Shown piece after piece: positions 5,647-44,810 of a DNA stretch of 64,000 nt. Under the pieces are notes generated by a model, which saw only the letters and a list, made by a program, of their open reading frames with translations, was not told the origin of the DNA and did not search any database. Each line of letters starts with the position of its first letter. Positions within the stretch are counted from its first letter, which is position 1. This DNA comes from Bacteroidota bacterium. Its GTDB lineage: Bacteria > Bacteroidota > Bacteroidia > Bacteroidales > VadinHA17. The position numbers and the translations under genes are program-made. The stretch covers positions 29,512 to 93,511 of the forward strand of contig JAYEGY010000122.1 in assembly GCA_034659275.1 (NCBI GenBank). Reading direction: 5' to 3'.

Positions 5647-5657
5647 AATTATGTAAT

Positions 5658-6275: not shown

Positions 6276-6286
6276 AATTCCGGTTT

Positions 6287-6943: not shown

Positions 6944-6946
6944 ATC

Positions 6947-7648
6947 TTATTCATTATTTTTTCCCAGGAATTCAACATATTTAACCAGGCAGTCATAAAT
7001 CATTGATTCAAGCCCTTTACTTGTAATGGTACCACCTGATATTGCATCTACGGCATGGGGGTCATCTTCTTCCGCACCTCCTTTCTGCACTGTTATACTT
7101 ACGAAATCCCCATTCTCAAAAAGTTTCTTATCCTCAAATTGTTCTTCAAACCAGCTCTCATTAATTTCAGCACCCAGCCCCGGTGTTTCCGACTTATGGT
7201 CGAATGTGACACCGTTTATTGTCCTAAGGTCTTCATTAAGAGAAATATAACCATATATGGGACCCCAGAGCCCCTTACCCTCGAGAGGCATTATATAGCT
7301 GTTGCTTCCGTCTTCCATACTGGCGACAAACACAGGCAAGACCTGTTCTTCGACTGGTTTTTTCTGTTCTTTCCTGACATCCACATTAAAAGGATCAACA
7401 TTCTCTACTCTCTCCGCATCATTGTTAATTGCAAAGGACTCGGTAATATATTTATCATAGAGGTTTTCAGCATTATCTTCTGTAGTTTCCACACCCACAG
7501 ATGCCAGGATATTACGTTTCTTCTCTATTTCTGCATTTTTCTCCTTTAGGGGTTGAAGGAGGAGGGCAGCTGAAGAGAGTATTAAAGCGACAATGGCAAC
7601 CATTGCTGCCGCGAAGATGAATATATAAGTGTTACTGAATTGTTTCAT
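6947..7648 (-). CDS. nqrC: Na+-NQR subunit C
   Basis: 233 aa with one TM helix and the FMN-attachment motif 'SGGTITS'. Confidence 0.9.
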   Translation of the reverse strand: MKQFSNTYIFIFAAAMVAIVALILSSAALLLQPLKEKNAEIEKKRNILASVGVETTEDNAENLYDKYITESFAINNDAERVENVDPFNVDVRKEQKKPVEEQVLPVFVASMEDGSNSYIMPLEGKGLWGPIYGYISLNEDLRTINGVTFDHKSETPGLGAEINESWFEEQFEDKKLFENGDFVSITVQKGGAEEDDPHAVDAISGGTITSKGLESMIYDCLVKYVEFLGKNNE

Positions 7649-7660
7649 TGTCGATATCTT

Positions 7661-8818: not shown

Positions 8819-8841
8819 TATTAAGCTAATAGTTTATTATT

Positions 8842-12735: not shown

Positions 12736-13536
12736 TTAGCCACCGATATTATAAAATTCGTCTTTAGTATTAATTGTTCCAAATTCAGGTTTATTTTCCA
12801 CTGCCAGTTTAATTGCTTTTTCAGCTCCCAGTTCCCTGACATTATATTCAAGATCACTGAAGAGGCAAGGTTTCAACATACCATTAGCGGTCAATCTCAG
12901 CCTGTTGCATGTTTCACACTCACCTCCACAGCCTCCTTCAACAGTAGTGTATATGCCTTTAGACAGGTTCATTTCTTTTATATATCTTACTTCAAGGCCT
13001 TTCTTTGCAGCATAGTCAGCAACCATTTTCGCATCAGGTTCATTCTTTGATTCTTTTACGACACAATTCAGTTTCACAGGGCTTAAGCCGGCTTCTATGG
13101 CTGCATCGATGCCATCCAGTACCTGGTTCAGGTCACCTCCCCTGGTAATCCACCTGAACTTATGAGGATCCATTGAATCGAGGCTCACATTAATCCTGTG
13201 CAATCCTTTTTCAGCCAGCACCACGGCAAATTTTCTCAGTAGTGTGCCATTGGTAGTCATTGATAAATCATTAATGCCATCGATCCCGGCTATCATGCCA
13301 ACAAGAACAGGCAGGTCTTTCCTGACCAGTGGTTCACCACCTGTCAGTCTCACCTTATCTATTCCCATCCGTACAGCGATTTTAACAAATTCAGTGATTT
13401 CGTCATAAGTAAGAATATCTTCATGCCTCAAAAGTTTAATTCCTTCGGCTGGCATGCAATAGCGGCATCTCAGGTTACACCTGTCGGTTACTGATATTCT
13501 CAAATAATTAATCCTTCTGTTAAATCTGTCGTACAT
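12736..13536 (-). CDS. moaA: GTP 3',8-cyclase MoaA (compact form)
   Basis: Radical-SAM motif 'CNLRCRYC', a C-terminal cluster 'CETCNRLRLTANGMLKPC' (C-x2-C-x13-C) and a terminal 'GG'. It is only 266 aa. Confidence 0.85.
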   Translation of the reverse strand: MYDRFNRRINYLRISVTDRCNLRCRYCMPAEGIKLLRHEDILTYDEITEFVKIAVRMGIDKVRLTGGEPLVRKDLPVLVGMIAGIDGINDLSMTTNGTLLRKFAVVLAEKGLHRINVSLDSMDPHKFRWITRGGDLNQVLDGIDAAIEAGLSPVKLNCVVKESKNEPDAKMVADYAAKKGLEVRYIKEMNLSKGIYTTVEGGCGGECETCNRLRLTANGMLKPCLFSDLEYNVRELGAEKAIKLAVENKPEFGTINTKDEFYNIGG

Positions 13537-14698
13537 CTACTATTTCTCCTTTTTTTATTTCTTTAATCCCCACAGGAACCTTCATTATACCATATGCTCC
13601 CGGAAGTGCATTAATATGGGCTGAACCGTGGTATTCAACCGGCGTAACCGTTTCATCGTTGTTTAAAATAACGGGAACCCATGACATCCGCCCGGCCCGC
13701 TTACGAAAATAGTCTTTCCCCAGTTTATGCTTTCGCTGTCCTTCTTTGATCATTGATCCCATAGATCTGTTTATCAATGGTCTTACAAATAGTTCGAACT
13801 GTATAAATGATGATACAGGATTTCCGGGTAAACCGAATATCAAAGCATTTCCATGAACTCCGAATGTAGTTGGCTTACCTGGTTGAACAGCTATCCTGTC
13901 AAAGATTATTTTTACTCCTGCTCTTGTCATCACCTGAGGCACAAAATCGAAGTCTCCCATTGACACTCCACCTGTAAGCAGGACTATATCACATTCATCT
14001 ATTGCCTTAACCATTATATCATAGGTAATACTTTCTTCATCAGGGGCTATGCCATAATAAACAGGTTCAGCGCCTGCCCTGCTTACCTGGGCCATTAGCT
14101 GGTATGCATTACTGTTTCGTATTTGTGATGGAGCCGGTTTGATATATGGTTCCACCAATTCATTACCCGTGGTAATAACTGCAATTTTCAAGCGTTTTTT
14201 TACAGCTACCTTCACTACACCTACTGTTGCCATAACAGCAATATCCTGAGGCCTAATAAGACGACCCGCTTTTATTACCGTATCCCCCACCCTTATGTCC
14301 TCTCCCATCATGGCAATATTGTTCTTTCCAGGTTTCCCCTTAAACCTGACCCTGCCATTTTTTTCTTCTGCGTCTTCGACCATGAAGACCCAGTCGGCAC
14401 CCTCCGGCATCGTAGCTCCTGTCATTATTTTAATACATTCTCCGGCTTCAACTTTCTTTAAGGCAGGCTTCCCGGCAGGAAGTATATCCTTTATAACAAG
14501 CTCTTTATCCAGGTCTTCTTTCCGGCATGCATAGCCGTCAACAGCAGGCTTATCAAAGGGAGGCATGTTAATATCACTGATAATATCTTCAGCAAGGAAT
14601 CTTCCAAGTGAATCCAAAATCTCAACATATTCAATCCCTGTTTCAAGGATGTATTTTTCAGTTATTGCCAAAGCCTCTTCATAAGGTACCATTATCAA
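13520..14698 (-). CDS. moeA: Molybdopterin molybdenum/tungsten transferase MoeA
   Basis: 392 aa with MoeA N-terminal, MoCF and C-terminal domain patterns ('LLTGGVSMGDFD', 'VAVQPGKP', 'GLPGNPVS'). Confidence 0.9.
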   Translation of the reverse strand: MIMVPYEEALAITEKYILETGIEYVEILDSLGRFLAEDIISDINMPPFDKPAVDGYACRKEDLDKELVIKDILPAGKPALKKVEAGECIKIMTGATMPEGADWVFMVEDAEEKNGRVRFKGKPGKNNIAMMGEDIRVGDTVIKAGRLIRPQDIAVMATVGVVKVAVKKRLKIAVITTGNELVEPYIKPAPSQIRNSNAYQLMAQVSRAGAEPVYYGIAPDEESITYDIMVKAIDECDIVLLTGGVSMGDFDFVPQVMTRAGVKIIFDRIAVQPGKPTTFGVHGNALIFGLPGNPVSSFIQFELFVRPLINRSMGSMIKEGQRKHKLGKDYFRKRAGRMSWVPVILNNDETVTPVEYHGSAHINALPGAYGIMKVPVGIKEIKKGEIVDVRQI

Positions 14699-19675: not shown

Positions 19676-21829
19676 TTATTGGTAATCCTTCACGAGCTCT
19701 ATCAATTCCGGCAGGTCCATTCCAATTTTTTTCAGGAATTCGATTCTGGGCACTCCCTTGCTATTCCATCCCCTTCTTTTATATACGGCGTCAATAAGGT
19801 CTTCGTATCGTTTTTCCCTGTACTTACGTGTAATTGCCAGTTTTTCCTCAATTGTTTTCCCTTCAGGATCGACCCCTATTAGTTCTTTCATCTGTTTATC
19901 ATATCTTTCAGCCCTCGATTCATATTCTTCAACCGTAACAGGTCCGGCTGCCCGATACGGCTGCCTGTCGTGCTCACGTGTTCCATACCCTCTCCTGAGG
20001 TTGAATATACGCTGGAAGTTATAAACCCTTTCAGAGTCTTCTATCATTTTGTGCTTATCAAATTCCCTGCCCGTAACAGCTTTATATATAGTTACATAAT
20101 TATCTACATGCTCGGGTACCTTGGCAGGTTCATCTGTTTCGGCATTATCTTCAGGTTCAACATCATTCCATGGCAGCTTGCAGAGTCCCACCAATCCAAA
20201 CCAGGTACGGAACATGGGGAAATAATGCAATGCTTCAGCCTTATCCTCGAATGTCGGTATCTGGTTATTGACCATATCCATAAATATAAGCCATGCTTCA
20301 TCATGCTGGGGGCCCTTATTGGTCATTGCAAAGCCTCCCTGCTGAGCCAGGGATTCTTTAGAGATATACTGTGAATACTCGAGCCCTTTATTCTCCATCC
20401 CTATATCATTGAGAAAATCAGGGTCGCCCCATCCTTTCTCTATGAACATCTCTTTCATTTTGCGTACGCCCATTCCTGCTATCTTACCAAAGCCTTCACC
20501 ACGGCTCAGCCTGTGCATAAGTTCCATAGCCGAGTCAGCATTCCCAAAATTTAGTTTAAGCCCGCCGGTTCTTTCTTCATTAAGGATGCCATTTTCATAA
20601 CATTCCATTATAAAAGCAAGCAGGGTGCCCCATGTAATGGTACAGATGCCATATGTATCACAATAGAAATTATATTCAAGGATATAGTCAGTACTGAAAA
20701 TACCACAGTTTGAACCAAGTCCGCCTGCACTTTCATATTCAGGTCCGTCCACAATGACTTTCTGCCCTTTATACGGACCTGTTCTAACCTCGTAGTTATC
20801 AACGCCCTTGGAGCATGACATACTACAACCTATCCAGCATCCATCGGGTATTCCCTGGGTAAATAATTTTTTCCACTTATCAGATTCAATTTTGAAAGCG
20901 TCGGGATGACTGCCGAACTTATAATTATCTGTCGGCAGGAGATCATGATCATTCATAATTTCTATAAGGTGCGCCGTACCCACTTCTTTCATCTGTGACT
21001 GCTCATGGTCAAATTCACGCATTTCACGGTTGAAGCGTTTTCCCCTTTCCTTGATAGCTTCTAAATCGACCACATTATTCAGGTTCCCTTTAACCCCGGG
21101 CACTTTGCAAACAAGAGCTTTGATCTTCTTATCACGGAACACTGTTCCTGTACCTCCCCGGCCTGCCTGTTTCATCCTGACAACTTTTCTCTTGGGATCG
21201 TAAAAACTGAAATTTAACATTCCTATGAGCGAATTATCCGCACCGCTTCCCGTTGACACAACAGCTACATTCTTTTTATCCTTTTCATTATCGGCATACA
21301 TCTCCGTGAGTTGTTCTGCCAGTATATGGCTATCAAGGGCTTCTTCCGGTGCTTCGTATATCCCTATGGTGTGGTTAATACCATCAATATATATAATAAC
21401 ATCTTTTTCAGCCTTGCCCTGTAGTTCCAGCGCATCATAACCGGCAAACTTGAGGAAGGGTCCAAAAAAGCCTCCGACATTGTTGTCCATAACCGAATCG
21501 GTCTGGGGCGATATTGTTACCACAAGTGACTTCCCTGTTCCCGAATACTGTGTAATCCCACCGATTGGCCCGGATGAAATAATTATTTCATTCTTTGGAT
21601 CATTCCAGGGAGTGCGTGGCTCGGTGGCATCCCATAGAAGTCTTAAGCCATACCCTCTCCCACCTATGAATTTTTCTTTCATCTCGGAAGGAACATCTTT
21701 CTCCTTGATCTCGTTGGTGCCAACATTAATGTAAAGTATTTTATCTGTATAACCTTTATCAAGAGGAAGCCAATCATATGAATATTCCTTGATTAATTTG
21801 TGTTTTTCTTTAATTGCCTGTACGTCCAT
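19676..21829 (-). CDS. Aldehyde:ferredoxin oxidoreductase family tungsto/molybdo-pterin enzyme (long, 717-aa form)
   Basis: AOR N-terminal domain ('ILYINVGTNEI..K.....KFIGGRGYGLRLLW'), a Cys cluster 'CWIGCSMSC', and an AOR C-terminal tail 'YKRRGWNSKGVP'. Confidence 0.85.
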   Translation of the reverse strand: MDVQAIKEKHKLIKEYSYDWLPLDKGYTDKILYINVGTNEIKEKDVPSEMKEKFIGGRGYGLRLLWDATEPRTPWNDPKNEIIISSGPIGGITQYSGTGKSLVVTISPQTDSVMDNNVGGFFGPFLKFAGYDALELQGKAEKDVIIYIDGINHTIGIYEAPEEALDSHILAEQLTEMYADNEKDKKNVAVVSTGSGADNSLIGMLNFSFYDPKRKVVRMKQAGRGGTGTVFRDKKIKALVCKVPGVKGNLNNVVDLEAIKERGKRFNREMREFDHEQSQMKEVGTAHLIEIMNDHDLLPTDNYKFGSHPDAFKIESDKWKKLFTQGIPDGCWIGCSMSCSKGVDNYEVRTGPYKGQKVIVDGPEYESAGGLGSNCGIFSTDYILEYNFYCDTYGICTITWGTLLAFIMECYENGILNEERTGGLKLNFGNADSAMELMHRLSRGEGFGKIAGMGVRKMKEMFIEKGWGDPDFLNDIGMENKGLEYSQYISKESLAQQGGFAMTNKGPQHDEAWLIFMDMVNNQIPTFEDKAEALHYFPMFRTWFGLVGLCKLPWNDVEPEDNAETDEPAKVPEHVDNYVTIYKAVTGREFDKHKMIEDSERVYNFQRIFNLRRGYGTREHDRQPYRAAGPVTVEEYESRAERYDKQMKELIGVDPEGKTIEEKLAITRKYREKRYEDLIDAVYKRRGWNSKGVPRIEFLKKIGMDLPELIELVKDYQ

Positions 21830-34505: not shown

Positions 34506-35393
34506 ATGAAAGCATATGTTTTCCCCGGACAGGGAGCACAATTCAGCGGTATGGGAAAAGACCTGTATGAATCAGATGATAAATTCAGGGAAATGTTTGA
34601 TAAGGGAAATGATATTCTCGGTTTCGATATAACGGATATAATGTTTAACGGGACCGACAGTGACCTGAAGCAAACTAAGGTGACCCAGCCGGCCATATTT
34701 CTTCATTCCACAATACTGGCTGAAGCCCTGGGTGACAAATGTGTGCCTGATATGGTTGCCGGTCATTCCCTGGGTGAGTTTTCTGCCCTGGTGGCAAACG
34801 GCACCCTCAGGTTTGAAGACGGACTAAGGCTGGTGGCCCAACGGGCACATGCGATGCAGAAAGCTTGTGAGACAAGACCATCAACCATGGCTGCAATCAT
34901 AGGCCTCGAGGATAACATAGTGGAAGAAGTGTGTGAATCAATAGATGACATAGTAATACCTGCCAATTATAATTCACCCGGCCAGATTGTAATTTCAGGA
35001 TCTGTTGAAGGTGTAGACCAGGCCATAGAGATCTTAAAACAAAAAGGTGCCCGTATGACAGTTAAGCTTGCAGTTGGTGGTGCCTTCCACACCCAGCTAA
35101 TGGAACCGGCCAGGCTCGAACTGGAAAAGGCTATCAATGAGACCCACTTTTCTGATCCTTCATGCCCGGTTTACCAGAATGCTTCTGCCAAAGCGGTAAG
35201 CAACCCCAATCAGATCAGGGCCAACCTGGTGGCACAGCTCACTTCACCTGTGAAATGGACACAGACAATACTCAATATGATAAGGGATGGAGCCGATCAC
35301 TTCACTGAAGTAGGGCCCGGAAATGTATTGCAAGGATTAATAAAGAAAACTGACAAGACAGTAGCAGTGGATTCGGCCAGCAAATTTGTTTAA
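34506..35393 (+). CDS. fabD: Malonyl-CoA:ACP transacylase
   Basis: 'FPGQGAQ' and the active site 'GHSLGEFSAL'. Confidence 0.9.
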   Translation: MKAYVFPGQGAQFSGMGKDLYESDDKFREMFDKGNDILGFDITDIMFNGTDSDLKQTKVTQPAIFLHSTILAEALGDKCVPDMVAGHSLGEFSALVANGTLRFEDGLRLVAQRAHAMQKACETRPSTMAAIIGLEDNIVEEVCESIDDIVIPANYNSPGQIVISGSVEGVDQAIEILKQKGARMTVKLAVGGAFHTQLMEPARLELEKAINETHFSDPSCPVYQNASAKAVSNPNQIRANLVAQLTSPVKWTQTILNMIRDGADHFTEVGPGNVLQGLIKKTDKTVAVDSASKFV

Positions 35394-38300
35394 GCATTAT
35401 AAGCATTTGTTGTATTATTACCTTTATCTTTCCCTGGCTTCATTATAACACCCTTATGTATCCTGCCGTCGATCATTATACTCAAGGGTTTATCAAACCT
35501 TACATGCCTAATATATTCATCCTGGTAAACATGAGGGGTATTATTCAGGAAGTCAACATCATAATAACCATCATCAATAAACGGATTTATAGTGAAGTAG
35601 CCCACCCTGAAAGATGTTATATTCTGAAAGAAATGTGTACCCTGGCTTGGATCTATACGGTAATTGGGCAATCCTGATTCAACTATTACCCTTGCCTGAG
35701 ATATATGTGGCCACTTAATAGGTATACCAAGCCAGGGGTCTGTTGATCCCCAGCGACCCGGTCCTATCAGGACATAATTCTTAGCATCCTTTATAAATTC
35801 CCTGTTGATCTTATCAATTACGTCAACCATCTTTTCATTATTGACTGCTTTGAATGATTCAGGTTTAACATAAATAAGGTCATAAATACCTCTTATCCTG
35901 CCGTTGCCAAGTGCAGAATCGGACATGATAATGGTGTCTTCTTTATTCACTTTTTCCAGATCTATTTTACCTGACTGGTCACTTTCCACAGTAGGTCTTA
36001 TCTGGAGGAAGTTAAAAATATTGGGAAGGCTTGATTCGGTTTCGAGATTAGCCGCAAATTCAATCTCAACAGGGTTACCCATTTCCTTCTGCCCCAGTTC
36101 AAGGAGGAAATCCAGCGCCTCAGCCAGTGGAAATGAACTGTATTTAAGGATATTATCAAATGTTATTATTCGTTTACCCTTAAGAGAGATGCCGGGCCTT
36201 ATAATATTATTATGGAGGTCGTATGTTGAAGCAACTTTCTTTAATGTGCTCTTACTGATATCATCATTTATTTTAAGCTTTTTGATATTTACCCCGTCAT
36301 CAACTGAAGGAACAAAGCTATCAGTATCGAGGTCAAGGGCATAATAAAGTTTCTGGGTTTCTTTAAGAGTTGTAGACGGTGAACTAAGCTGTAACACTTT
36401 TGCAGGGTATTTCGGGGAGAAACGAAGCGACACCCCGCCATCAACTATAAGTTTCCCCAGTCCCATTGCAATATTGGCTATTCCATCCTCAGCTTTTTCC
36501 GAGCCTATAGGATAAAAATTGATTGACCGTGCCACGCCGGACAGAGTGGGGTAATAGATATTATCATGCCTGTTACCACATACCTCCTGGATAATAATTC
36601 CCATTTTCTCTTCGTCAATTACATTTGCAGTTGCAGTCATATAAGCTTTGCTACTCTTATAATACACAGAGGCATATACTTCTTTTATTGCATCTGAGAG
36701 CATCTTCACCATCACAGGATTATCGCCGACACGTGGTAACATATAGGTTGAATAAATACCTGCAAATGGCTGGTAGTGGCTGTCTTCAAGCTTACTGGAC
36801 GATCTCACGGCCAGGGGATATGTTCTTGAAACCGACAGGAAGGCATACAGGTCCTGGTATACCCACCCCGGAAGTTCAGCATCCACGAACTTTTTCAGTA
36901 TTTCTTCATCGGGCAGGTCACTTATTCCAACCGAGTACAGGTTGTTTCTCTCCATAAATTCATCGAATACATCGGTACTGAGCACAACGGTACGGGGTAT
37001 TGTAATAAGTGTTCCAGGGTATTTATGGAATAATTTCTTTTTCTTAATAAGGCTGTTAATGAAAGCAAGGCCCCGGGCTTTGCCCCCTATTGATCCTTCA
37101 CCTATCCTGCTGAAAATCTGATATTCATCGAAAGTATTACGGTCAAATTTAGCAATTACACCCCTGCCCTTACCCAGCCTGAAGCTTGAGATTGCCACAT
37201 AGATAAACCTCCTCATATCTTCCATTGAGTCAAAATCTTCCATTTTGATAAACTTGAAAAGCTGTGCAACAGGGAACAGCGCCCTGGCATTCAGCCACTT
37301 AGAAAAATGGTTTCGCTCAGCATGATAGAAAAGAGATTTATCGGAAAGGGTTAGTAGTTTTTGCTGGAAACTCTGCAGGTCGGTAGCAATACCGATTGTT
37401 TCCATGGTATCCGGATCTCTGAAAATAAAAGGCCCAAATGCCAGGTTCTGGATAATAAAATTTCTCAGTTCTATTGAGAGATTCTTGGAATACTTATTCA
37501 AGAATCCCACTTCCAGTTCATCGGCGATTTTTTTTGATTTAATATCCGATGATTGAAGGAGTAATGGCATATTGCTTTCATCCTTCTTTATTAATTTAAT
37601 GAGGTCAATCCCGGCATCATCCTTTAGCTTACCTTCTTTCTTATAGGAGATATCGGAGATTATTCCCAGCAAATTGTATTTATATTTTTCATATAGGGCT
37701 ATAGCATCCTCATAATTTGTAGCCAGTAATATCTTGGGACGACCCCGCATTTTCAGCATTTTCTGGTGCGGATTAAGTGCTTCCTGCTGAAAATCCCTTG
37801 ACTGTTTAAGAATTATTTTATAAAGGTTTGGCAAGTAAGTAGATATATAACGTATTGAATCTTCCACAAAAATTATGGCCTGTACACCCACTACTTCAAT
37901 ATCATGCTCGGCATTCATCCTGTCTTCCAGCAGTTTGATAATAGCCAATAGAAGGCTGGCCTCACCCAGCCAGCAAAAAATATAATCAACAGCACTGAGA
38001 TCTTCCCTCTGCAACCGCAGTGATACTTCACGGGAAAAATAGGTAAGGGCAACAATAGGGGTGGAAGGGCATTTACCTTTTATCTTACGTGCAATGGCAA
38101 AAACATCTTTTTCCCTGAAGTTAAGCATGGAAATAACAAGGTCAATTTTTTCCTCATTCAGGATTTTCATTGCTTCACTTTCACTATCGGTCTGTACAAA
38201 AGATGGGGGGTATCTCAGGTTAAGTGATACATACTCATTAAAGATCTGCTCATCGATACGGCCATCTTCTTCGAGCATATAATTATCATAGTTGCTGCAT

Positions 38301-38401
38301 ATGATCAGCACCTTATGAATACGCTTCTGCATTAAAAGGTTAAAAGAAGTATCACTAAAGTCATACTTCTGCAATTCCATTATACCTTCAATAAGTGCCA
38401 T
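35390..38401 (-). CDS. Pseudo-receiver + receiver + PPDK-type ATP-grasp (PEP/pyruvate-binding N-terminal domain) protein with an unassigned C-terminal module
   Basis: 1003 aa. The REC-like segment reads 'IIFVEDS...GIISDISY...LLLQSS'. The ATP-grasp segment reads 'GGKARGLAF' and 'LAVRSSSKLEDSHYQPFAGIYSTY'. The C-terminus reads 'GPGRWGSTDPWLGIPIKWPHISQARVIVE...SQGTHFFQN'. I found no 'TSH' swivel-His motif. Confidence 0.7.
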   Translation of the reverse strand: MALIEGIMELQKYDFSDTSFNLLMQKRIHKVLIICSNYDNYMLEEDGRIDEQIFNEYVSLNLRYPPSFVQTDSESEAMKILNEEKIDLVISMLNFREKDVFAIARKIKGKCPSTPIVALTYFSREVSLRLQREDLSAVDYIFCWLGEASLLLAIIKLLEDRMNAEHDIEVVGVQAIIFVEDSIRYISTYLPNLYKIILKQSRDFQQEALNPHQKMLKMRGRPKILLATNYEDAIALYEKYKYNLLGIISDISYKKEGKLKDDAGIDLIKLIKKDESNMPLLLQSSDIKSKKIADELEVGFLNKYSKNLSIELRNFIIQNLAFGPFIFRDPDTMETIGIATDLQSFQQKLLTLSDKSLFYHAERNHFSKWLNARALFPVAQLFKFIKMEDFDSMEDMRRFIYVAISSFRLGKGRGVIAKFDRNTFDEYQIFSRIGEGSIGGKARGLAFINSLIKKKKLFHKYPGTLITIPRTVVLSTDVFDEFMERNNLYSVGISDLPDEEILKKFVDAELPGWVYQDLYAFLSVSRTYPLAVRSSSKLEDSHYQPFAGIYSTYMLPRVGDNPVMVKMLSDAIKEVYASVYYKSSKAYMTATANVIDEEKMGIIIQEVCGNRHDNIYYPTLSGVARSINFYPIGSEKAEDGIANIAMGLGKLIVDGGVSLRFSPKYPAKVLQLSSPSTTLKETQKLYYALDLDTDSFVPSVDDGVNIKKLKINDDISKSTLKKVASTYDLHNNIIRPGISLKGKRIITFDNILKYSSFPLAEALDFLLELGQKEMGNPVEIEFAANLETESSLPNIFNFLQIRPTVESDQSGKIDLEKVNKEDTIIMSDSALGNGRIRGIYDLIYVKPESFKAVNNEKMVDVIDKINREFIKDAKNYVLIGPGRWGSTDPWLGIPIKWPHISQARVIVESGLPNYRIDPSQGTHFFQNITSFRVGYFTINPFIDDGYYDVDFLNNTPHVYQDEYIRHVRFDKPLSIMIDGRIHKGVIMKPGKDKGNNTTNAYNA

Positions 38402-38402
38402 A

Positions 38403-41400
38403 TTAACTACATTCAGTACATTCGATAGTGGAGATTCGTTTTTTACCGTCCATTCTTACTATAAGGGGCGATTTGAACCTTACGTGGTTAAAGAATTTTC
38501 CTTTATATATCACTTTTCCCTTTCTCAGCCTGTCCCACTTTACAAACTCATCGGATGATTGCTGATCGATAGAGAAATACCCTACATTCATTGAGGTAAC
38601 GTTATGGAAGAAATGGGAGCCGAGGGAAGCATCCAGTGGAAAGTCGGGCAGGCTTACTTCCACAATAACTTTGGCTTGCGATATTTGTGGCCAGGCCACA
38701 GGAACACCAATAAACCTGTCTCTGGTACCCCAACGGCCCGGGCCGATCAATATATACTTTTTACCCTCTGCTATCATTTTATCGTTTATTGAATCTATTT
38801 CCTCGGCCATTGCATCTGTATGAGTATTATCAAATTTATCAGGATCGATGTATATAACATCAGTAATATCATCCACCTTGCCATTCCCCATACTTCTCCG
38901 TGATATCAGCAGGCAATCATCTTTGCTAATTTTATCCAGGTTAATATTATATCCTGCACCGCTGCCAACCATTGGTTTTACCTGCAGCAGGTAAAAGTCA
39001 GCTTTACCACTTTTCCCCAGGTTAAGATCAACGGCATATTCAATCTCCACCGGGGCCCCGAATGCTTCCTTCACCACATCCAGTACTGTTGCTATTGTTT
39101 GGGCCAGGGGTATATAATCATACCTCAATATATTTGCAAAATTTACCACTCTGGGGCCATAAGTATCTATCCCCGGTTCTATAGTATCATTATCAGGGTT
39201 ATACACCGAAGCACAATGTTTAAGGGTGCCATGCTTCTCAGCGTCAGATATCTCAAGTTTTACCAGGCCTGCACTTTCACCTTCAAGCAAGTTTATTTCT
39301 TCCTTTTTCATATCCACGGCATAGAAATAAACCTGGGTATCCTTGGATACATCCTTCTGGGACACTATTTCAAGAGAGGGGTAGCTTGGTGAGAACCTAT
39401 AGGCTTTTTCACCTTCAACCACATATTGTCCCAGGCCCACGGCAGCAACGGCGAATCCTTCATCGGGTTTCATATGAGCAACAGGGTAAAAATTATATGA
39501 TTGGGCTGTCCCGCTTATATGTGGATAGAAGGCATCCTCAAACCTGTTACCAACCACTTCCTGCAGGACAATTGCCATTTTTTCCTGTTCGATCATATAG
39601 TTTATTGCCTCGAAATATGTACGGGCACTTTTTGAATATATAGATGCGAAGACAAGCTTAATAGCATTCATGATGAGCCTCAGCCTAACTTCAAAATCAG
39701 GGTTATTATTCGGCAGCAGGTAGGTACCAAATACACCGGAAAAGGGCTGGCTCATTGAGTCTTCAAAAAGGCTGGATGAACGAATGGCTATTGGCCTGTC
39801 CATCAGTTTAAGGAATGACCTCAGCTTTTTTTCAAGGTTATAGGAAAGGTTGCTGTTCAGGAATTTTCTTTTAAGCTGTTCATAGTCCTTTTCTTCCTTG
39901 ATAACGGAGCGCAGCTTGTTTGTTTCTATAAAAAGGTCAAACTCATCTGTCCCGATTATTATTGTAACCGGGCTTTTTATGTTTATCCCCGGAGTGAGTT
40001 TACCCAGTTCAAAGCCATATATCAGGGTATTAATAAAAGCCAACCCTCTGCCTTTACCCCCGAGTGAACCGCTGGTAAGGCTTACAACGTTGGTTTCATC
40101 TATAGCTGCTGACTCCACGTAGTTTACCACCTTCCCCTTGTCCAACTCTCGCCGACGCTTGGATATAAGGCCAAGCAGAAAATTCCTCAGTTCTGAAAGG
40201 TTGGAGAAATCACTTATCTTCATGGGGTTGATGATCTTGGCAATCTTAACCTCACCTCTGGCCATAAGCCATAGCGAGAAATGATTCTTCATCGCATGGT
40301 ATACAAGTGAATCTTCAGGTATTGTTTTAAGGTATTGCTCAAATTCATTCATCGACTTGGCTACTGCAATCTGCCTTCCCATATTATCCCGGTATACAAA
40401 ATGTCCAAATCCGAGGTAATAATTAATAAATGATCTGAGATCCTGAAGGAGGCTCTGGGAATTCTTGTTAATAAAGTTTGATTTAAGTGAATGTGCGTAT
40501 TTTGAATTTTCCGGATCGGATGATTGAAGCACGCTTGGCAGGTTAGGGAGTTCACTTTTGACATACTTAATAAGTTCGTAACCTGCTTTGTCATTCAATT
40601 TATTATTTTTCGGGAACCTCATGTCAGATATGACGCACAGCATGTTGTTCTTATACCTGTCGATTATAGCCAGGGCATCTTCGTAGGTTGTTGCGAGCAA
40701 TATTTTTGGTCTGGCCCTCATTTTGAGAACCTTGTATAACTCGTCGGTACTCACATCTTCTATCAGATGTCTTGTTTGCTCCATCACCAGGGTATACAGT
40801 GTAGGCAGGTAGCTTGAATAGTATTCAGCCGAGTCTTCCACCAGCATAATAACCCTCGTCAGGCCCTTCCTGGTATCATTTTCAACATTCACCCTGTCTT
40901 CAAGAAGCTTAACCATGGCAAAGAAGACCCGTGTTTCACCTGTCCATACAAAATATTCATCAAAGGGGTATCCCCTGTCTCTTTTTTTCTTTACATAGGC
41001 CACATCATCCTGGCTGCTCAGCAATAGAAAAGTAGGTATATAGGGGTATTTTTGTTTTATTTTGAGGCATAGCTTCATGGGATTTTCCTTTTCTACCCCC
41101 AGCATCACTATAATAAGGTCGAAATGTTTAGACCTGAGTCGTTCCATTGCTTCTTCGAGTCCGGAAACACCTGTTACCCTAGGCATAGAGGTAAGGTTAA
41201 GCTGGTGATATTCACCGAAAATATATTCCGAGAACCTTCCTTCGCCTTCTATTGAATAAGCATCATACAGGTTTGCCACCAGCAATATTTCCTTCACTTT
41301 AAAGGGCATGAGGTCGTGGAAGATATCCCGTTCAGCATTATATCTTTCCAGGAAGCGCTGCAGGAGTTGACGGGATGAAGTTACTGGTTTTGCTGTATCA

Positions 41401-41849
41401 TCCATGGTGACCGTTTCAGGGATATTCATCATTTCCCTTGCAAGCGAACTATTTATAAAGCCCGTGAGCAGGCTTGCCAGGTTTTCAATAAGATCTTTTT
41501 CCTCTTCAAGGAAGACACCAAAATCGCTTGGTTCAAATTCCCGGCTATAAAATACTTCTATTGAGCCCCTGACGTTATTTATTGTCTTAAATTCCTGTCT
41601 CAGTACCCACTTGGTTTCTTCAAAATTTGTTGTCACAAATACTTTGTTGCCATATTTTATCCTGGCAACGGTAAACTCAGGATACTGCCATGCGTGTGGC
41701 AGTGTATGAACCACTTTTTGCAATGTTTCATCAATTGACTTCCCTTCTTTAAGGATGGCGGTAGTACGGTTTATGCAGGCCAGTTCCTTAAGACGTTCCT
41801 GCTGGTCATGCAACAATTGTTTATACCCGTTACCCTGAATTTTACCCAT
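38403..41849 (-). CDS. Paralog of the preceding gene with an extra N-terminal sensor-like module
   Basis: It has the same architecture ('MLVEDS...VISDMRF...VLQSS', 'GGKGRGLAF', 'IAIRSSSLFEDSMSQPFSGVFGTY', 'GPGRWGTRDRFIGVPVAWPQISQAKVIVE...SLGSHFFHN'). It also carries about 170 aa of N-terminal extension ('LKELACINRTTAIL...LPHAWQYPE'). The ATG at 41849 is preferred because the GTG at 41921 lies inside the korB terminator hairpin. Confidence 0.7.
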   Translation of the reverse strand: MGKIQGNGYKQLLHDQQERLKELACINRTTAILKEGKSIDETLQKVVHTLPHAWQYPEFTVARIKYGNKVFVTTNFEETKWVLRQEFKTINNVRGSIEVFYSREFEPSDFGVFLEEEKDLIENLASLLTGFINSSLAREMMNIPETVTMDDTAKPVTSSRQLLQRFLERYNAERDIFHDLMPFKVKEILLVANLYDAYSIEGEGRFSEYIFGEYHQLNLTSMPRVTGVSGLEEAMERLRSKHFDLIIVMLGVEKENPMKLCLKIKQKYPYIPTFLLLSSQDDVAYVKKKRDRGYPFDEYFVWTGETRVFFAMVKLLEDRVNVENDTRKGLTRVIMLVEDSAEYYSSYLPTLYTLVMEQTRHLIEDVSTDELYKVLKMRARPKILLATTYEDALAIIDRYKNNMLCVISDMRFPKNNKLNDKAGYELIKYVKSELPNLPSVLQSSDPENSKYAHSLKSNFINKNSQSLLQDLRSFINYYLGFGHFVYRDNMGRQIAVAKSMNEFEQYLKTIPEDSLVYHAMKNHFSLWLMARGEVKIAKIINPMKISDFSNLSELRNFLLGLISKRRRELDKGKVVNYVESAAIDETNVVSLTSGSLGGKGRGLAFINTLIYGFELGKLTPGINIKSPVTIIIGTDEFDLFIETNKLRSVIKEEKDYEQLKRKFLNSNLSYNLEKKLRSFLKLMDRPIAIRSSSLFEDSMSQPFSGVFGTYLLPNNNPDFEVRLRLIMNAIKLVFASIYSKSARTYFEAINYMIEQEKMAIVLQEVVGNRFEDAFYPHISGTAQSYNFYPVAHMKPDEGFAVAAVGLGQYVVEGEKAYRFSPSYPSLEIVSQKDVSKDTQVYFYAVDMKKEEINLLEGESAGLVKLEISDAEKHGTLKHCASVYNPDNDTIEPGIDTYGPRVVNFANILRYDYIPLAQTIATVLDVVKEAFGAPVEIEYAVDLNLGKSGKADFYLLQVKPMVGSGAGYNINLDKISKDDCLLISRRSMGNGKVDDITDVIYIDPDKFDNTHTDAMAEEIDSINDKMIAEGKKYILIGPGRWGTRDRFIGVPVAWPQISQAKVIVEVSLPDFPLDASLGSHFFHNVTSMNVGYFSIDQQSSDEFVKWDRLRKGKVIYKGKFFNHVRFKSPLIVRMDGKKRISTIECTECS

Positions 41850-41895
41850 ACGGAAGCAAGTTATTAAACCATCTAAAGATACCTCTTTATCAAAT

Positions 41896-41924
41896 AAAAA
41901 AAAAGGTGTCCCTAAGAACACCTT
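41896..41924 (-). terminator. Rho-independent terminator after korB
   Basis: On the minus strand: AAGGTGT-TCTTAGGG-ACACCTT followed by a T-run of about 9 nt. Confidence 0.7.
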
Positions 41925-41948: not shown

Positions 41949-42965
41949 CTATTTTGATTCCCATGTTGACCCACTACGCAGCAGTTCGTCAACATTCTTT
42001 ATCTCCCTGCTTTTCTGCACTTTAGTTATCTGTCCTTTTACGGACATGTCATAGGTGGGGGCTGAGACGCATCGTATAACTCCCATAGCCACAGGGTAAC
42101 CCGGGTACCTCATATTGGCCAGCATGGTGTGAATACCGGGATTATTTTCTTCACAATCATGCACAAGGATATCTTTTTCAGTGATACCCTTACCCAGCTT
42201 TACCACCTTAAGTTTCAATCCATCGAGTTTAAGACCTTTATCCATGTTTTTACCAAATAACATTGGTTCACCCTGTTTAAGAATAATGGTATTTTCTTCT
42301 CTTGTTTCCCTGTCAGTAAGTTGTTCATGCACCCCGTCATTGAAAATCACACAATTCTGTAGTGTTTCTACCACCGATGCTCCTTCATGCAGGGCAGCTT
42401 GCTTATATACTTCTGTTGAAAGTTGCACATTGGAATCGATGGTACGTGCAAAAAATTTCCCTTTGGCTCCTATTACCAGCTCACCTACAGAAAAGGGCTC
42501 TTCAATTGTACCAAACGGTGATGTTTCTGTAACAGCCCCTCTCACTGAAGTTGGAGAGTACTGTCCCTTTGTCAGTCCGTATATCTCGTTATTAAACAGG
42601 ATGATATTGATATCTATATTTCGTCTTATCGCGTGAATAAAATGATTACCTCCGATAGCCATTGCGTCGCCGTCGCCGGTTATCTGCCACACATTAAGGT
42701 CAGGATTAGCCACTTTTACACCTGTTGCCAGAGCTGAGGCACGACCATGGATACCATGGAATCCGTAAGTGTTCATATAATAAGGGAATCTCGAGGAGCA
42801 ACCGATACCAGAGATAAAGGCAAACTTCTCTTTGGGTATCTTAAGTTCGGCCAGTGCCCTTGTAACGGCGGCCAGTATAGCATGATTACCGCAACCGGGG
42901 CACCATCTTACTTCCTGGTCACTTTTAAAATCATTCGGGCTATAATCTATTTTTTCTTCAGCCAT
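41949..42965 (-). CDS. korB: 2-oxoglutarate/2-oxoacid:ferredoxin oxidoreductase beta subunit
   Basis: 338 aa with the TPP-binding motif 'ITGDGDAMAIGGNH' and 'WCPGCG'. Confidence 0.85.
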   Translation of the reverse strand: MAEEKIDYSPNDFKSDQEVRWCPGCGNHAILAAVTRALAELKIPKEKFAFISGIGCSSRFPYYMNTYGFHGIHGRASALATGVKVANPDLNVWQITGDGDAMAIGGNHFIHAIRRNIDINIILFNNEIYGLTKGQYSPTSVRGAVTETSPFGTIEEPFSVGELVIGAKGKFFARTIDSNVQLSTEVYKQAALHEGASVVETLQNCVIFNDGVHEQLTDRETREENTIILKQGEPMLFGKNMDKGLKLDGLKLKVVKLGKGITEKDILVHDCEENNPGIHTMLANMRYPGYPVAMGVIRCVSAPTYDMSVKGQITKVQKSREIKNVDELLRSGSTWESK

Positions 42966-42968
42966 AAT

Positions 42969-44810
42969 TTATTCCTCCAGTATCTTGATACATTGTTCTT
43001 TTACTTCAGCACATATAAAAGGCAATCCCTGGATTTTATTTATTTGTTTAAATTTAAATCCTTCGAATTCCATTCTCAGGTACCTAACGAATTGCCCCGC
43101 ATTAAGTTCGGCCACTACCAGCTTATTAAATCGTGAAAAGACTTCAGCCGTATTAGCCGGCAATGGGTTTATGTAGTTAAAATGTGCAAGGCTTACTTTC
43201 CTGCCTTCTTTTCTAAGTGCCCGTACTGTAGTCAGCAAGTGGCCATATGTCCCTCCCCAGCCTATGAGCAGCATATCGCCTTCATCGTCTCCATAAGTTC
43301 TGAGGTGAGGCACCTTAGTTGCTACCCTTGCTACTTTTTCAGCTCTCATTTCTACCATATGTTCATGGTTTTCAGGGATATATGACACTGTTCCCCTCAC
43401 TGTTTTTTCCAGTCCTCCTATCCTGTGCTCCCTGCCCCTTGTTCCGGGTACAGCCCACTTCCTGCTGAGTTTCTTTTCATCCCGTTCGTAGGGTATAAAT
43501 TCATCATCTCCTTCACCGACTAATAGTGGTTTTATATCAGGCAGTGAATCCATTGAGGGTATCTTCCACGGTTCAGAACCATTAGCAAGAAATCCGTCTG
43601 AAAGCAAAATCACGGGAACCATATGTTCAAGGGCTATCCTGGCTGCTTCAAATGCATATTGAAAGCAATTGGATGGTGTACTTGCAGCTATAACTACTAC
43701 CGGGCATTCCCCGTTCCTGCCATACAATGCCTGCAGAAGGTCAGCCTGTTCTGTCTTGGTTGGCAATCCTGTAGAAGGTCCTCCCCGCTGAACATCAATA
43801 ATCACTATTGGCAATTCTGTCATAACGGCCAGGCCCAGTGCTTCTGATTTAAGTGCCAGCCCCGGTCCCGAAGTTGTTGTAACTGCCAGGTTTCCTGCGA
43901 AGCTTGCTCCTATAGAAGTACAAATACCGGCAATCTCATCTTCAGCCTGGAAGCTTTTTACACCAAGGTCTTTTCTTACAGCCAACGCTTCCAGTATACC
44001 GGTAGCAGGCGTGATGGGGTAGGACCCAATAAATAATTCAAGGCCTGCTTTCTCTGCCGCAGCAAGTAAACCCCAGGCTGTAGCAGTATTACCGTCAATT
44101 GTACGGTATAATCCTTTTTCAATGCTTGCAGGTCTGACCTTATAAATAGGTGCCATGACTTCTATAGTCTCGGCGTAATTATACCCTGCCCGCAATACTG
44201 CTCTGTTGGCTTCTATTATCTTTGGCCGTTTGCTGAACTTATTTTTGAAATATTCTTCGGTATATTTCAGGTCACGCCCAAACAGGAAGTAAACCATACC
44301 CAGGGCAAACATATTTTTGGTACGTATAACCGTTTTAGGATCAAGACCATGATCTTTAAGGGTTTCCTTAACCATTGAGGAAATCGGTGCAGAGATAACA
44401 TTATACTTATCCAGTTGATCTTCCCCTATAGGGTTACTGGTATAACCGGCTTTTTTAATATTTTTATCAGTAAAATTATCTTCATCAAGAATAATTATAC
44501 CTCCCTCGCGGATATTGTTAGCATTGGCTTTTACTGCCGCGGGGTTCATAGCAACAAGAATATCTGCATAATCACCCGGTGTATTTACCTCCGAATGCCC
44601 CACATGTACCTGGAAGCCTGACACTCCACCTACTGTCCCCTGGGGAGCCCTTATCTCAGCCGGGTAGTCCGGGAAAGTAGACAGGTCATTACCAAAAAGG
44701 GCTGATGTATTGGAAAATAAAGTTCCGGTGAGCTGCATTCCGTCACCCGAATCTCCCGAGAAACGTATAACAACATCTTCTCGTTCGACGACACGCTCAT
44801 TCTTATTCAT
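42969..44810 (-). CDS. korA: 2-oxoglutarate/2-oxoacid:ferredoxin oxidoreductase alpha subunit
   Basis: 613 aa with the fused gamma/alpha domain pattern typical of KorA ('GDSGDGMQ', 'YPITPAT', 'TSGPGL'). Confidence 0.85.
   Translation of the reverse strand: MNKNERVVEREDVVIRFSGDSGDGMQLTGTLFSNTSALFGNDLSTFPDYPAEIRAPQGTVGGVSGFQVHVGHSEVNTPGDYADILVAMNPAAVKANANNIREGGIIILDEDNFTDKNIKKAGYTSNPIGEDQLDKYNVISAPISSMVKETLKDHGLDPKTVIRTKNMFALGMVYFLFGRDLKYTEEYFKNKFSKRPKIIEANRAVLRAGYNYAETIEVMAPIYKVRPASIEKGLYRTIDGNTATAWGLLAAAEKAGLELFIGSYPITPATGILEALAVRKDLGVKSFQAEDEIAGICTSIGASFAGNLAVTTTSGPGLALKSEALGLAVMTELPIVIIDVQRGGPSTGLPTKTEQADLLQALYGRNGECPVVVIAASTPSNCFQYAFEAARIALEHMVPVILLSDGFLANGSEPWKIPSMDSLPDIKPLLVGEGDDEFIPYERDEKKLSRKWAVPGTRGREHRIGGLEKTVRGTVSYIPENHEHMVEMRAEKVARVATKVPHLRTYGDDEGDMLLIGWGGTYGHLLTTVRALRKEGRKVSLAHFNYINPLPANTAEVFSRFNKLVVAELNAGQFVRYLRMEFEGFKFKQINKIQGLPFICAEVKEQCIKILEE

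Follow-up and report, generated by a model that had tools for sequence, protein, structure and literature searches.

Two adjacent genes on the minus strand of the window (the whole 64,000-nt stretch of DNA analysed) encode large proteins in which receiver domains are joined to an ATP-grasp of the PEP synthase/PPDK type, without the swivel domain of those enzymes. Such a pair raises the questions of where the phosphate from ATP would go, through which residue, and under what control.

Gene 1 (35390..38401, minus strand) starts with ATG and encodes protein 1 (1003 aa), in which the open reading frame and Pfam matches delimit a pseudo-receiver, a receiver, a DUF5752-like linker, a PPDK_N ATP-grasp and a novel C-terminal module. 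Gene 2 (38403..41849, minus strand) encodes protein 2, with the same architecture behind an additional N-terminal sensor-like domain. The two genes meet at TAA-T-ATG, with a 1-nt spacer, and their products are paralogs (40% identity and 61% similarity across 978 aa). The mechanically called frame of gene 2 extends from 38403 to 41921 (1172 aa from GTG), but this GTG falls within a terminator-like hairpin (41903..41924, minus strand; 9-bp stem with 4 GC pairs, then a T-run) that separates gene 2 from the oxidoreductase beta gene; the true start is most likely the ATG at 41849, giving 1148 aa. The earlier note had described two same-strand frames 1 nt apart, of 1003 and about 1150 aa and of like architecture, set off from an upstream 'korAB' by a good terminator, and each of these points was borne out; the domain order is kept in thousands of homologs. 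The Pfam scan it had proposed matched Response_reg and PPDK_N in both proteins, with PEP-utilizers (PF00391) absent. A database entry 100% identical to protein 1 carries only the name 'PEP/pyruvate-binding domain-containing protein'.

The ATP-grasp was recognized by Pfam as PPDK_N in protein 1 (aa 437-812, 35966..37093, minus strand; E 3.7e-35), in protein 2 (38967..40067, minus strand; E 4.2e-38) and in all 48 diverse family members scanned, in agreement with the original assignment to the PEP synthase/PPDK type. Invariant residues in protein 1 are GGK439-441, R533-S-S, E539, D540, E779, E781 and Q800; across the family, the GGK, RSS, ED, ExE and Q(x)RP motifs are invariant or nearly so. The conserved residues correspond to K22, R92, D321/E323 and Q335/R337 of Clostridium symbiosum PPDK. 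Judged by these columns, the core retains the nucleotide- and Mg-binding residues of PEP synthase, PPDK and rifampin phosphotransferase. In protein 2 the QxRP motif has Lys for Arg ('LQVKP'), which, like the degenerate first receiver described below, would fit one or both paralogs being catalytically dead scaffolds (pseudoenzymes) kept for regulation. We consider this very improbable: the R-to-K change is conservative, and the catalytic residues of the ATP-grasp and the invariant residues of the C-terminal module are kept in both paralogs and in relatives 29-51% identical to protein 1.

An AF2 model of the ATP-grasp with the C-terminal module was of high confidence (pLDDT 90.8, pTM 0.90), and its best Foldseek matches in the PDB were rifampin phosphotransferase, HpeI (9goj), PEP synthase (2ols) and PPDK (1kbl). 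The first of these (RPH-Lm; 5hv1, 5fbs) gave the best structural match to the ATP-grasp (5hv1: E 6.5e-15, probability 1.0, 424 aligned columns). Like the gene-pair family, it bears its His domain at the extreme C-terminus and has no TIM-barrel PEP/pyruvate domain. It differs in its rifampin-binding domain, in the absence of receivers and in its swivel domain, a canonical PF00391 that matches the swivel region of PpsA at E 7.5e-17 and resembles the C-terminal module of the pair in neither sequence nor fold. PEP synthase and PPDK share with the family PPDK_N with its GGK, RSS, ExE and QxRP motifs; the family, unlike them, has no PF00391 domain, PEP-utilizers_C TIM barrel or GGxTSH motif. Weak NCBIfam matches to the PigC/RedH prodigiosin ligases also covered the ATP-grasp (E 1e-10 to 8e-14, 36-50 bits), well short of the cut-offs of these families, which are 1300 or higher. 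In PigC/RedH, the L-glutamine kinase Cj1418 and phenylphosphate synthase/HpeI, PPDK_N phosphorylates substrates other than pyruvate. To our knowledge, all of these rely on a swivel His domain of the canonical type, either in the same chain or in a partner subunit, and none is fused to a receiver.

Source annotations in many records read 'phosphoenolpyruvate synthase', and NCBIfam PEP synthase models do match weakly, over the ATP-grasp only. These matches covered about 150-340 residues and reached 15-50 bits, where the cut-offs are 600-1000. Neither PF00391 nor the PEP-utilizers_C TIM barrel was found by Pfam in any of the 48 diverse members, and just ~190 aa follow the ATP-grasp. The view that the pair are ordinary PEP synthases or PPDKs whose receivers regulate gluconeogenic PEP formation is refuted at the domain level, and we give it next to no credence.

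What follows the ATP-grasp is a module of ~190 aa in protein 1 (aa 813-1003, 35393..35965, minus strand), marked by GNG, GPGRWG and SxG[ST]HFFxN motifs, and its counterpart in protein 2 (38406..38966, minus strand; 'GPGRWGT', 'SLGSHFFHN'). Its strong conservation, noted from the two paralogs at the outset, extends to 57 sequences 29-51% identical to protein 1, in which R883, G892, P894, E908, S919, G921, H923, F924 and N927 are invariant. Clustering at 50% identity gave 2186 clusters that contain the module; among the full-length sequences listed it is C-terminal, after PPDK_N wherever the architecture was checked, and in fused proteins of ~1500-1650 aa it also occurs mid-protein. It takes the place in the sequence that the swivel domain has in the related enzymes, immediately behind the QxRP motif; both it and the swivel domain of Escherichia coli PpsA start about 20 residues after that motif. 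Searches for the swivel domain itself agreed with the earlier failure to find its motif: Pfam gave no match to the isolated module at E<=10, a profile search of PDB sequences did not reach a swivel domain, hhalign against a swivel alignment gave a probability of only 0.3-1.3%, and Foldseek found no fold match in the PDB to a confident model of the module (pLDDT 83.7 alone, about 80-97 within the two-domain model). The structure prediction and fold search suggested for this end of the proteins thus yielded a confident model with no PDB neighbour.

The His of 'G[ST]HFF', one of the phosphoryl acceptors suggested earlier, is H923 in protein 1 (codon 35633-35635) and H1079 in protein 2 (codon 38613-38615). 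It is invariant in 57/57 homologs, together with R883, E908, S919, G921, F924 and N927, and in the confident model it is the first residue of a helix (923-930). From its conservation, its place in the chain and its predicted helix-N-terminal location, we infer a phosphohistidine role for H923. We tentatively favour a reading, plausible though short of probable, in which the products of both genes are phosphotransferases that depend on ATP, are regulated by signals, belong to the PEP synthase/PPDK/rifampin-phosphotransferase (dikinase) superfamily, have a non-canonical His domain and act at the 2-oxoglutarate/glutamate node. The PPDK_N ATP-grasp is packed against the C-terminal domain, which stands in place of a swivel domain; H923 or H1079 would take phosphate from ATP, as a phosphohistidine carrier or catalytic nucleophile, and the phosphate would be handed from this His to an acceptor.

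The same module may instead be catalytic and bind a substrate or ligand, the ATP-grasp directly phosphorylating (or pyrophosphorylating) a bound small molecule or protein, with H923, R883 and E908 as binding or acid-base residues. The pTM of 0.90 suggests rigid packing in the model rather than a swivelling carrier, the module has no similarity to the swivel domain, and the invariant R883, E908, S919 and N927 around the His resemble a binding pocket; moreover, core proteins of 570-580 aa that have no receivers offer no other candidate for binding a substrate. We nevertheless hold this to be unlikely. The module starts exactly where the His domain of PEP synthase starts, phospho-carriers typically have such an invariant His at the start of a helix, and every characterised PPDK_N enzyme known to us uses a phosphohistidine intermediate.

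Both proteins carry two receiver-fold domains ahead of the ATP-grasp. Receiver 1 of protein 1 (aa 28-165, 37907..38320, minus strand; Pfam Response_reg at 68-142) is a pseudo-receiver: C-S replaces the acidic pair, M92 the acceptor Asp and C143 the Lys, and 'DLVISML' aligns with 'slvisDvnm' of solved receivers, placing Met at the Asp position. Column counts over 57 diverse homologs showed that the acceptor Asp and the Lys are missing family-wide along with the acidic pair, the only loss recorded before. Its counterpart in protein 2 ('EILLVANLYD', 'DLIIVML') lies at 40887..41309 on the minus strand (Response_reg at 241-313, GTG numbering). Receiver 2 of protein 1 (aa 172-320, 37442..37888, minus strand) carries a ~45-aa insertion and is so highly divergent that its profile reached solved receivers only at E 0.1-1.6; all 12 of these weak PDB matches were receivers, with D250 (codon 37652-37654) aligned to the acceptor Asp. 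The residues first picked out by eye are indeed conserved (E180 in 53/57, D181 in 50/57, D250 in 52/57, S284 in 51/57 and K303 in 52/57), so that by its sequence receiver 2 is a divergent but catalytically complete receiver. In protein 2 the paralog alignment places it at 40407..40859 on the minus strand ('LVEDS', 'VISDMRF', 'VLQSS', 'NKNS'), with D409 (codon 40623-40625) as the counterpart of D250.

PleD-type REC-REC-GGDEF proteins are response regulators with an enzymatic output and a tandem of receiver and pseudo-receiver. The pair resembles them in having one phosphorylatable and one degenerate receiver fold N-terminal to an enzyme domain. Here, by contrast, the degenerate receiver comes first, receiver 2 has its insertion and can hardly be picked up by profiles, and a dikinase-like enzyme with an ATP-grasp forms the output. 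In the favoured reading the receiver pair would gate enzyme activity: the enzyme may be switched when an unlinked histidine kinase or small phosphodonor phosphorylates D250 or D409, and the Asp-less receiver 1 may serve as a dimerisation or relay module.

The N-terminal domain peculiar to protein 2 (about 130 aa, 41430..41822, minus strand) had no match in Pfam. Longer relatives contain several copies of it (P0259 and P0341, three being counted in the latter), and REC-less relatives share it; it is 27% identical (E 1e-16) to the N-terminus of a 1062-aa protein at locus L082. Among the REC-less relatives, P0267, P0303, P0380, the L082 protein and the two units of P0242 all retain the His equivalent to H923, which ties the role of this residue to the ATP-grasp core rather than to the receivers. 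Under the favoured reading, the N-terminal domain would add ligand sensing to protein 2, and the two proteins, which would be co-translated across the 1-nt spacer, may act as a pair.

These relatives also bear on a self-contained phosphorelay, in which phosphate would pass from the ATP-grasp to the C-terminal His and on to the receiver 2 Asp of the same protein or of its paralog, with the N-terminal domain of protein 2 as input and the phosphorylated receiver as output. A protein of this kind would be a sensor kinase of a new, non-Bergerat type, and the phosphorylation of its receiver would be kinase-independent. One polypeptide does contain both the invariant His and the conserved acceptor Asp, self-catalysed phosphorylation from a phospho-His donor is established behaviour of receivers, the surveyed loci showed no conserved histidine-kinase partner close to the gene, and protein 2 is laid out like a sensor protein, its N-terminal domain being the one repeated in relatives. 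Yet the REC-less relatives retain the His and the entire ATP-grasp/C-terminal core, so the core functions independently of a fused receiver; 5/57 members without the Asp still have the His; no recognisable output domain lies downstream of the receiver; and an ordinary response regulator would be expected to conserve the Asp just as well. We regard such a relay as quite unlikely.

For the target of the output in the favoured reading, the gene neighbourhood offers candidates. Upstream of the pair (41949..44810, minus strand) lies a two-subunit 2-oxoacid:acceptor (ferredoxin) oxidoreductase (Pfam POR, POR_N, TPP_enzyme_C; NCBIfam TIGR03710 at 658 bits, cut-off 483). The name 'korAB' given earlier is borne out only to the level of that class, with 2-oxoglutarate a putative substrate. 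We surveyed the best 80 of at least 596 loci from Bacteroidota species; being the best-scoring and all protein-1-like, they form a biased sample. A korAB-like oxidoreductase directly adjoins the family gene in 12/80 loci, so the linkage asked about in the earlier note recurs in a subset, and the tandem duplication is limited to close relatives (about 13-17/80). An NADP-type glutamate dehydrogenase (Pfam ELFV_dehydrog; NCBIfam PRK14030 at 826 bits, cut-off 743) directly adjoins the gene in 20/80 and lies within 7 kb in 27/80. In Lutibacter and Polaribacter the arrangement is gdh-gene-gdh, and at one locus (L020) korA-korB-gene-gdh run on a single strand. No gdh is present in the 64-kb window, and both gdh and the oxidoreductase are missing near about half of the well-flanked loci, sampled gut Bacteroides included. 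The frequency of the two neighbours indicates the 2-oxoglutarate/glutamate node; the proposed link to 2-oxoacid metabolism is thereby strengthened, with this node in place of PEP/pyruvate. The output may thus be directed at glutamate dehydrogenase, at the 2-oxoacid:ferredoxin oxidoreductase or at some metabolite of the node.

The family is abundant in Bacteroidota. Full-text literature searches found no characterised member, as the earlier note had supposed. In the parts available to us, response-regulator censuses (PMC5847659; PMC4395418) list the same architecture, a 'REC + pyruvate phosphate dikinase' combination in Bacteroides-like proteins enriched for aspartate-less receivers, and give it without function, analysis of the C-terminal module or gene context. 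The domain combination is therefore already catalogued, and the C-terminal domain with its invariant His is undescribed.

One further element was added to the earlier domain description. Between receiver 2 and the ATP-grasp of protein 1 lies a DUF5752-like linker (aa 321-420, 37142..37441, minus strand); PF19027 (DUF5752) matched 22 of the 48 family members, at best with E 3e-6, and protein 2 with E 1.2e-4.

The two genes lie in tandem on the reverse strand. Gene 1 (35390-38401) encodes a protein of 1003 aa (protein 1). The mechanical ORF of gene 2 (38403-41921, reverse strand) encodes 1172 aa from a GTG at 41921, which falls within a terminator-like hairpin (41903-41924, reverse strand; 9-bp stem, then a T-run) just past the stop codon of the beta-subunit gene of an upstream 2-oxoacid:acceptor oxidoreductase (41949-44810). 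The next ATG, at 41849, gives a product of 1148 aa (protein 2), and relatives are 1145-1147 aa long; this ATG is the likely true start, and a longest-ORF call would over-extend gene 2 by 24 codons (41849-41921). The earlier note was therefore right in placing a good terminator between the oxidoreductase and the pair and in sizing protein 2 at about 1150 aa. Proteins 1 and 2 are 40% identical and 61% similar over 978 aligned residues (BLASTP). The junction of the genes reads TAA-T-ATG; because the spacer is only 1 nt, the operon-like pair is probably translationally coupled. At its other end, gene 1 overlaps a convergent 295-aa ORF (34506-35393, fabD-like in appearance) by 4 nt at the stop codons (35390-35393), leaving no space for an intervening terminator. 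An Rfam scan of the whole window gave zero matches.

Pfam scans returned PPDK_N and Response_reg in both proteins and no PEP-utilizers domain in either. PPDK_N (PF01326) matched with E values of 3.7e-35 (protein 1) and 4.2e-38 (protein 2), and was present in all 48 family members scanned singly. To score conservation, we counted columns in an alignment of 57 diverse family members whose identity to protein 1 is 29-51%. GGK439-441, R533-S-S, E539, D540, E779, E781 and Q800 were invariant, and R802 was conserved in at least 90%; these residues correspond to the nucleotide, Mg and phosphate ligands of PPDK. The conserved residues of the ATP-grasp are kept in both paralogs, and this retention of an intact catalytic set argues for two active enzymes. 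That the proteins are pseudoenzymes is contradicted by residue conservation and domain content, and we consider it very improbable. Employing Foldseek, we found that an AlphaFold2 model of the ATP-grasp plus the C-terminal region (pLDDT 90.8, pTM 0.90) matched rifampin phosphotransferase (5hv1; E 6.5e-15), HpeI (9goj), PEP synthase (2ols) and PPDK (1kbl and others), all with a probability of 1.0.

The family resembles RPH, PEP synthase and PPDK in the nucleotide-binding half but differs from them in having neither the PF00391 swivel domain nor a substrate domain. The swivel domain, with its GGxT[SC]H motif, was found by Pfam neither in protein 1 or 2 nor in any of the 48 members. No substrate domain (PEP-utilizers_C TIM barrel or rifampin-binding) was detected by Pfam or NCBIfam, and only ~190 aa follow the ATP-grasp. 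The only NCBIfam matches, to models of PEP synthase, PigC/RedH and RPH, were far below threshold and did not extend beyond the ATP-grasp. Since two defining dikinase features are missing, the proteins should not be filed as PEP synthases; an ordinary PEP synthase, the name carried by some family records, is contradicted by domain content and residue conservation and is extremely improbable.

The ~190 aa after the ATP-grasp (aa 813-1003 of protein 1) form a module that starts ~20 residues past QxRP, where the swivel begins in E. coli PpsA, and that shares loose patterns with the swivel ('A[IL]GxGxxxG', 'TDPxW', 'LGIP' and a His at a helix start). Isolated modules had no Pfam match at E<=10, fragments made of the module alone had no precomputed Pfam domain, no NCBIfam match covered this region, and a module profile matched no PDB sequence. 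The isolated module was modelled by AlphaFold2 with a pLDDT of 83.7; Foldseek found no fold match for it in the PDB (best E 0.017, TM 0.32), and the 50 matches listed include no dikinase. When the module was compared by hhalign, in several modes, with an alignment of six solved or reference swivel proteins (PpsA, 2ols, 8a8e, 9dae, 2e28 and RPH), the probability was 0.3-1.3%, and the best segment aligned 'LGIP' only. With Pfam, the PDB profile search, Foldseek and hhalign all lending no support, a diverged swivel domain is unsupported, though not disproved. Two weak Foldseek matches (TM <0.4, probability <0.2) were to aconitase X and a PA domain, folds that we take to belong to the swivelling beta/beta/alpha class of SCOP. 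A Rossmann-like reading of 'LIGPGRWGS...VIVE' was rejected: the model does not show the helix that such a fold should have, and the 50 Foldseek matches listed, none with a TMq above 0.32, include no evident Rossmann-fold enzyme. The absence of a canonical swivel domain, as claimed in the earlier note, stands, and the C-terminal motifs described there are borne out: R883, G892, P894, E908, S919, G921, H923, F924 and N927 are invariant in the 57 sequences.

The module profile matched 2186 clusters at 50% identity, 578 of them at E<=1e-30. The listed full-length sequences carry the module at the C-terminus, after PPDK_N where the architecture was checked; in fused proteins of ~1500-1650 aa, it is also found mid-protein. 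It contains an invariant His, and its recognition as an orphan domain is new here. The module co-evolves with the ATP-grasp and, in the two-domain model, is rigidly packed on it; the pLDDT of the His loop is ~60-70 in the isolated model and ~80 in this one. A helix of the two-domain model starts at H923, and this predicted position of the invariant His (H1079 in protein 2) is a hint of dikinase chemistry, in which ATP would be converted to AMP via phospho-His. The rigid two-domain model and the lack of swivel similarity favour a different reaction, direct phosphorylation of a ligand bound to the module, which we nevertheless regard as rather unlikely.

Response_reg (PF00072) scored 39.9 bits in protein 1 and, slightly under the cut-off of 30.2, 27.2 bits in protein 2; it matched 35 of the 48 members. 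Throughout the 57 sequences, receiver 1 is without the acidic pair and has S/A and S/T there instead, with M/T/F/I at the acceptor Asp position and L/V/I at the Lys position. Alignment to solved receivers placed Met92 of protein 1 at the acceptor position, and no residue of the phospho-acceptor pocket is kept in this receiver. Receiver 1 is a pseudo-receiver, which fits the enrichment of aspartate-less receivers among PPDK-linked regulators reported in PMC4395418. Receiver 2 is highly divergent, with a ~45-aa insertion after strand 1, but has the complete pocket (acidic pair, Asp, Thr/Ser and Lys): E180 is kept in 53/57 sequences, D181 in 50/57, D250 in 52/57, S284 in 51/57 and K303 in 52/57. 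A receiver 2 profile found nothing among PDB sequences at E<=0.01; its assignment by this search comes only from the consistent identity of the sub-threshold matches (E 0.1-1.6), 12 of 12 being receiver domains. The Asp of receiver 2 aligned with the acceptor Asp of these matches, including 3hdv.

The region that connects receiver 2 to the ATP-grasp (37142-37441, reverse strand, in protein 1, with an equivalent in protein 2) is DUF5752-like; it matched DUF5752 (PF19027) around the Pfam threshold in 22 of the 48 members; no mention of DUF5752 was found in the literature searched. Relative to protein 1, protein 2 has an extra N-terminal domain of ~130 aa (41430-41822, reverse strand) with the motifs 'ERLKEL.CIN', 'WQYPE', 'GSIEVFY' and 'EE..L' and no Pfam match. 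The same type of domain is present several times over in two longer relatives (P0259 and P0341; three copies were counted in the latter), and it is probably an undescribed ligand-sensing domain. With one competent receiver and one pseudo-receiver in front of the ATP-grasp, and the additional sensor-like domain in protein 2, the proteins qualify as response regulators with enzymatic output.

Protein 1 matched at least 7988 clusters at 90% identity, none of which has a name other than 'PEP/pyruvate-binding domain-containing protein', 'phosphoenolpyruvate synthase' or 'CheY-like'. In species-representative genomes there were at least 596 matches. Almost all of the best 80 carried a Bacteroidota label (Bacteroides, Phocaeicola, Prevotella, Alistipes, Parabacteroides, Paludibacter, Muribaculaceae, Gillisia, Lutibacter and Polaribacter), and a few MAGs were labelled otherwise (Chlorobiota, Victivallales and Acutalibacteraceae). 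Gut Bacteroides orthologs form clusters of thousands of members without a functional name. The family is large and occurs in dominant human-gut and rumen genera (Bacteroides, Phocaeicola, Prevotella, Alistipes and Parabacteroides) and in marine Flavobacteriia, and despite this all of its records bear generic or wrong names.

Some relatives are devoid of receivers. Proteins of 566-580 aa consist of the ATP-grasp and module alone, and in one MAG (GCA_964404765.1, locus L082, 597-5524) such a gene, of 580 aa, overlaps by 4 nt a gene for a 1062-aa protein composed of a protein-2-type sensor domain, PPDK_N, the module and a Pol-beta nucleotidyltransferase domain. Compared with protein 2, the sensor domain of the latter matched at E 1e-16 and its ATP-grasp plus module at E 3e-42. 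A TsaD/HypF-like gene follows this pair. P0242 (1639 aa) is a fused form of the same pair, and working in pairs is a recurring theme of the family. The invariant His is retained in all of these receiver-less relatives (the 566-580-aa cores, the 1062-aa protein and P0242), so that ATP-grasp plus module is the ancestral functional unit and the receivers are a Bacteroidota-typical regulatory addition. The receiver-less relatives also weaken the view that the proteins are self-contained relays, passing phosphoryl groups from ATP-grasp to His to Asp; such a relay would, moreover, have no output domain, and we consider it unlikely.

To survey gene context, ORFs were called in the best 80 of the at least 596 loci and clustered by BLASTP, and neighbours from the window were mapped by tblastn. 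Two family copies were present in 17/80 loci, strictly in tandem in 13 of the 17. The tandem order protein 2-protein 1 was seen in close relatives only, and the closest ones share much of the gene order bamA-skp-murI-oxidoreductase-P2-P1-fabD-folE-queD. Taken by itself, this linkage could therefore reflect inherited order. The oxidoreductase is adjacent to a family gene in 12/80 loci, and in more distant lineages (L008, L013, L020, L022 and L081) it also lies immediately upstream of genes present in single copy. The earlier note placed the pair directly downstream of this enzyme, which it called korAB. In the window, the alpha subunit of this two-subunit 2-oxoacid:acceptor oxidoreductase passes TIGR03710 (OAFO_sf; 658 vs a cut-off of 483), the beta subunit is under all NCBIfam cut-offs, and the 2-oxoglutarate-specific models are under their own.

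The commonest neighbour is a ~445-aa protein, adjacent in 20/80 loci and within 7 kb in 27/80, either following on the same strand or upstream in divergent orientation (median gap 271 bp). It is a glutamate dehydrogenase (ELFV_dehydrog, E 8e-83; NCBIfam PRK14030, 826 bits vs a cut-off of 743). Lutibacter and Polaribacter show a gdh-gene-gdh arrangement, L029 has gene-gdh-gene, and L020 has korA-korB-gene-gdh on one strand; no gdh is present in the window. In L030, L035 and L044 (Lutibacter, Polaribacter), the family gene sits between two gdh paralogs (447 and 445 aa) of the same orientation in what looks like an operon-like unit, with pheS upstream. Flanks of at least 3 kb on each side were available in 50 loci, and in 21 of these glutamate dehydrogenase or the oxidoreductase is directly adjacent. 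The linkage of the family to these enzymes is recurrent, and both would handle 2-oxoglutarate if the oxidoreductase is of the Kor type.

The reading that we favour, tentatively and at somewhat less than an even chance, is a dikinase-type phosphotransferase gated by its receivers, in which H923 would take over from the swivel His as phospho-carrier or nucleophile and the target would lie in the 2-oxoglutarate/glutamate node. No histidine kinase gene is conserved next to the family in the 80 loci, a hybrid two-component system gene is near it in 7 Bacteroides loci only, and no histidine kinase was found among 10 large ORFs of the window. It is conceivable, though quite unlikely, that the ATP-grasp and His module constitute a new kind of signalling kinase, unrelated to the Bergerat-fold histidine kinases, that autophosphorylates on H923 and then hands the phosphoryl group on, either to the Asp of its own receiver or to one of two enzymes, glutamate dehydrogenase and the 2-oxoacid oxidoreductase. 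If true, Bacteroidota would have a form of covalent control not known before, acting on the 2-oxoglutarate/glutamate (nitrogen assimilation) node, and this would explain the reversible inactivation in vivo of Bacteroides fragilis GDH, reportedly observed in 1987.

The combination of REC and PPDK domains is catalogued in two response-regulator censuses (PMC5847659 and PMC4395418). No functional study of any member was found in the full-text literature searched, and the gene does not appear in a nitrogen transcriptome paper on P. ruminicola or in its supplement. The family is, then, already catalogued and uncharacterised; new here are the orphan C-terminal domain with its invariant His, the paired relatives without receivers and the conserved linkage to glutamate dehydrogenase and the oxidoreductase. 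The family links two systems that have been studied well, the receivers of two-component signalling and the ATP-grasps of dikinases, by way of a domain without known relatives, and it therefore probably conceals phosphotransfer chemistry or a class of substrate that is new. To our knowledge, regulation of the carbon/nitrogen junction in Bacteroidota is poorly understood, and the recurrent place of these genes beside glutamate dehydrogenase and 2-oxoacid:ferredoxin oxidoreductase is a testable lead on its control. Single-copy orthologs occur in genetically tractable hosts, so the hypothesis is directly testable.

Two further features of the surroundings were recorded. In five loci, including L079 and L081, a protein of ~516-573 aa directly follows the family gene (median gap 45 bp); it has a low-complexity, coiled-coil look and no Pfam match, and in L081 the oxidoreductase is upstream of the family gene as well. 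In the window, other genes of redox and anaerobic metabolism are located at 253-2676, 4393-10191, 13520-14698 and 19676-21829, and this set includes a fused E1 dehydrogenase/transketolase-like protein of 807 aa, NqrA and an NqrF-like Fer2/FAD/NAD protein, MoeA, and an aldehyde:ferredoxin oxidoreductase (AFOR_N + AFOR_C).
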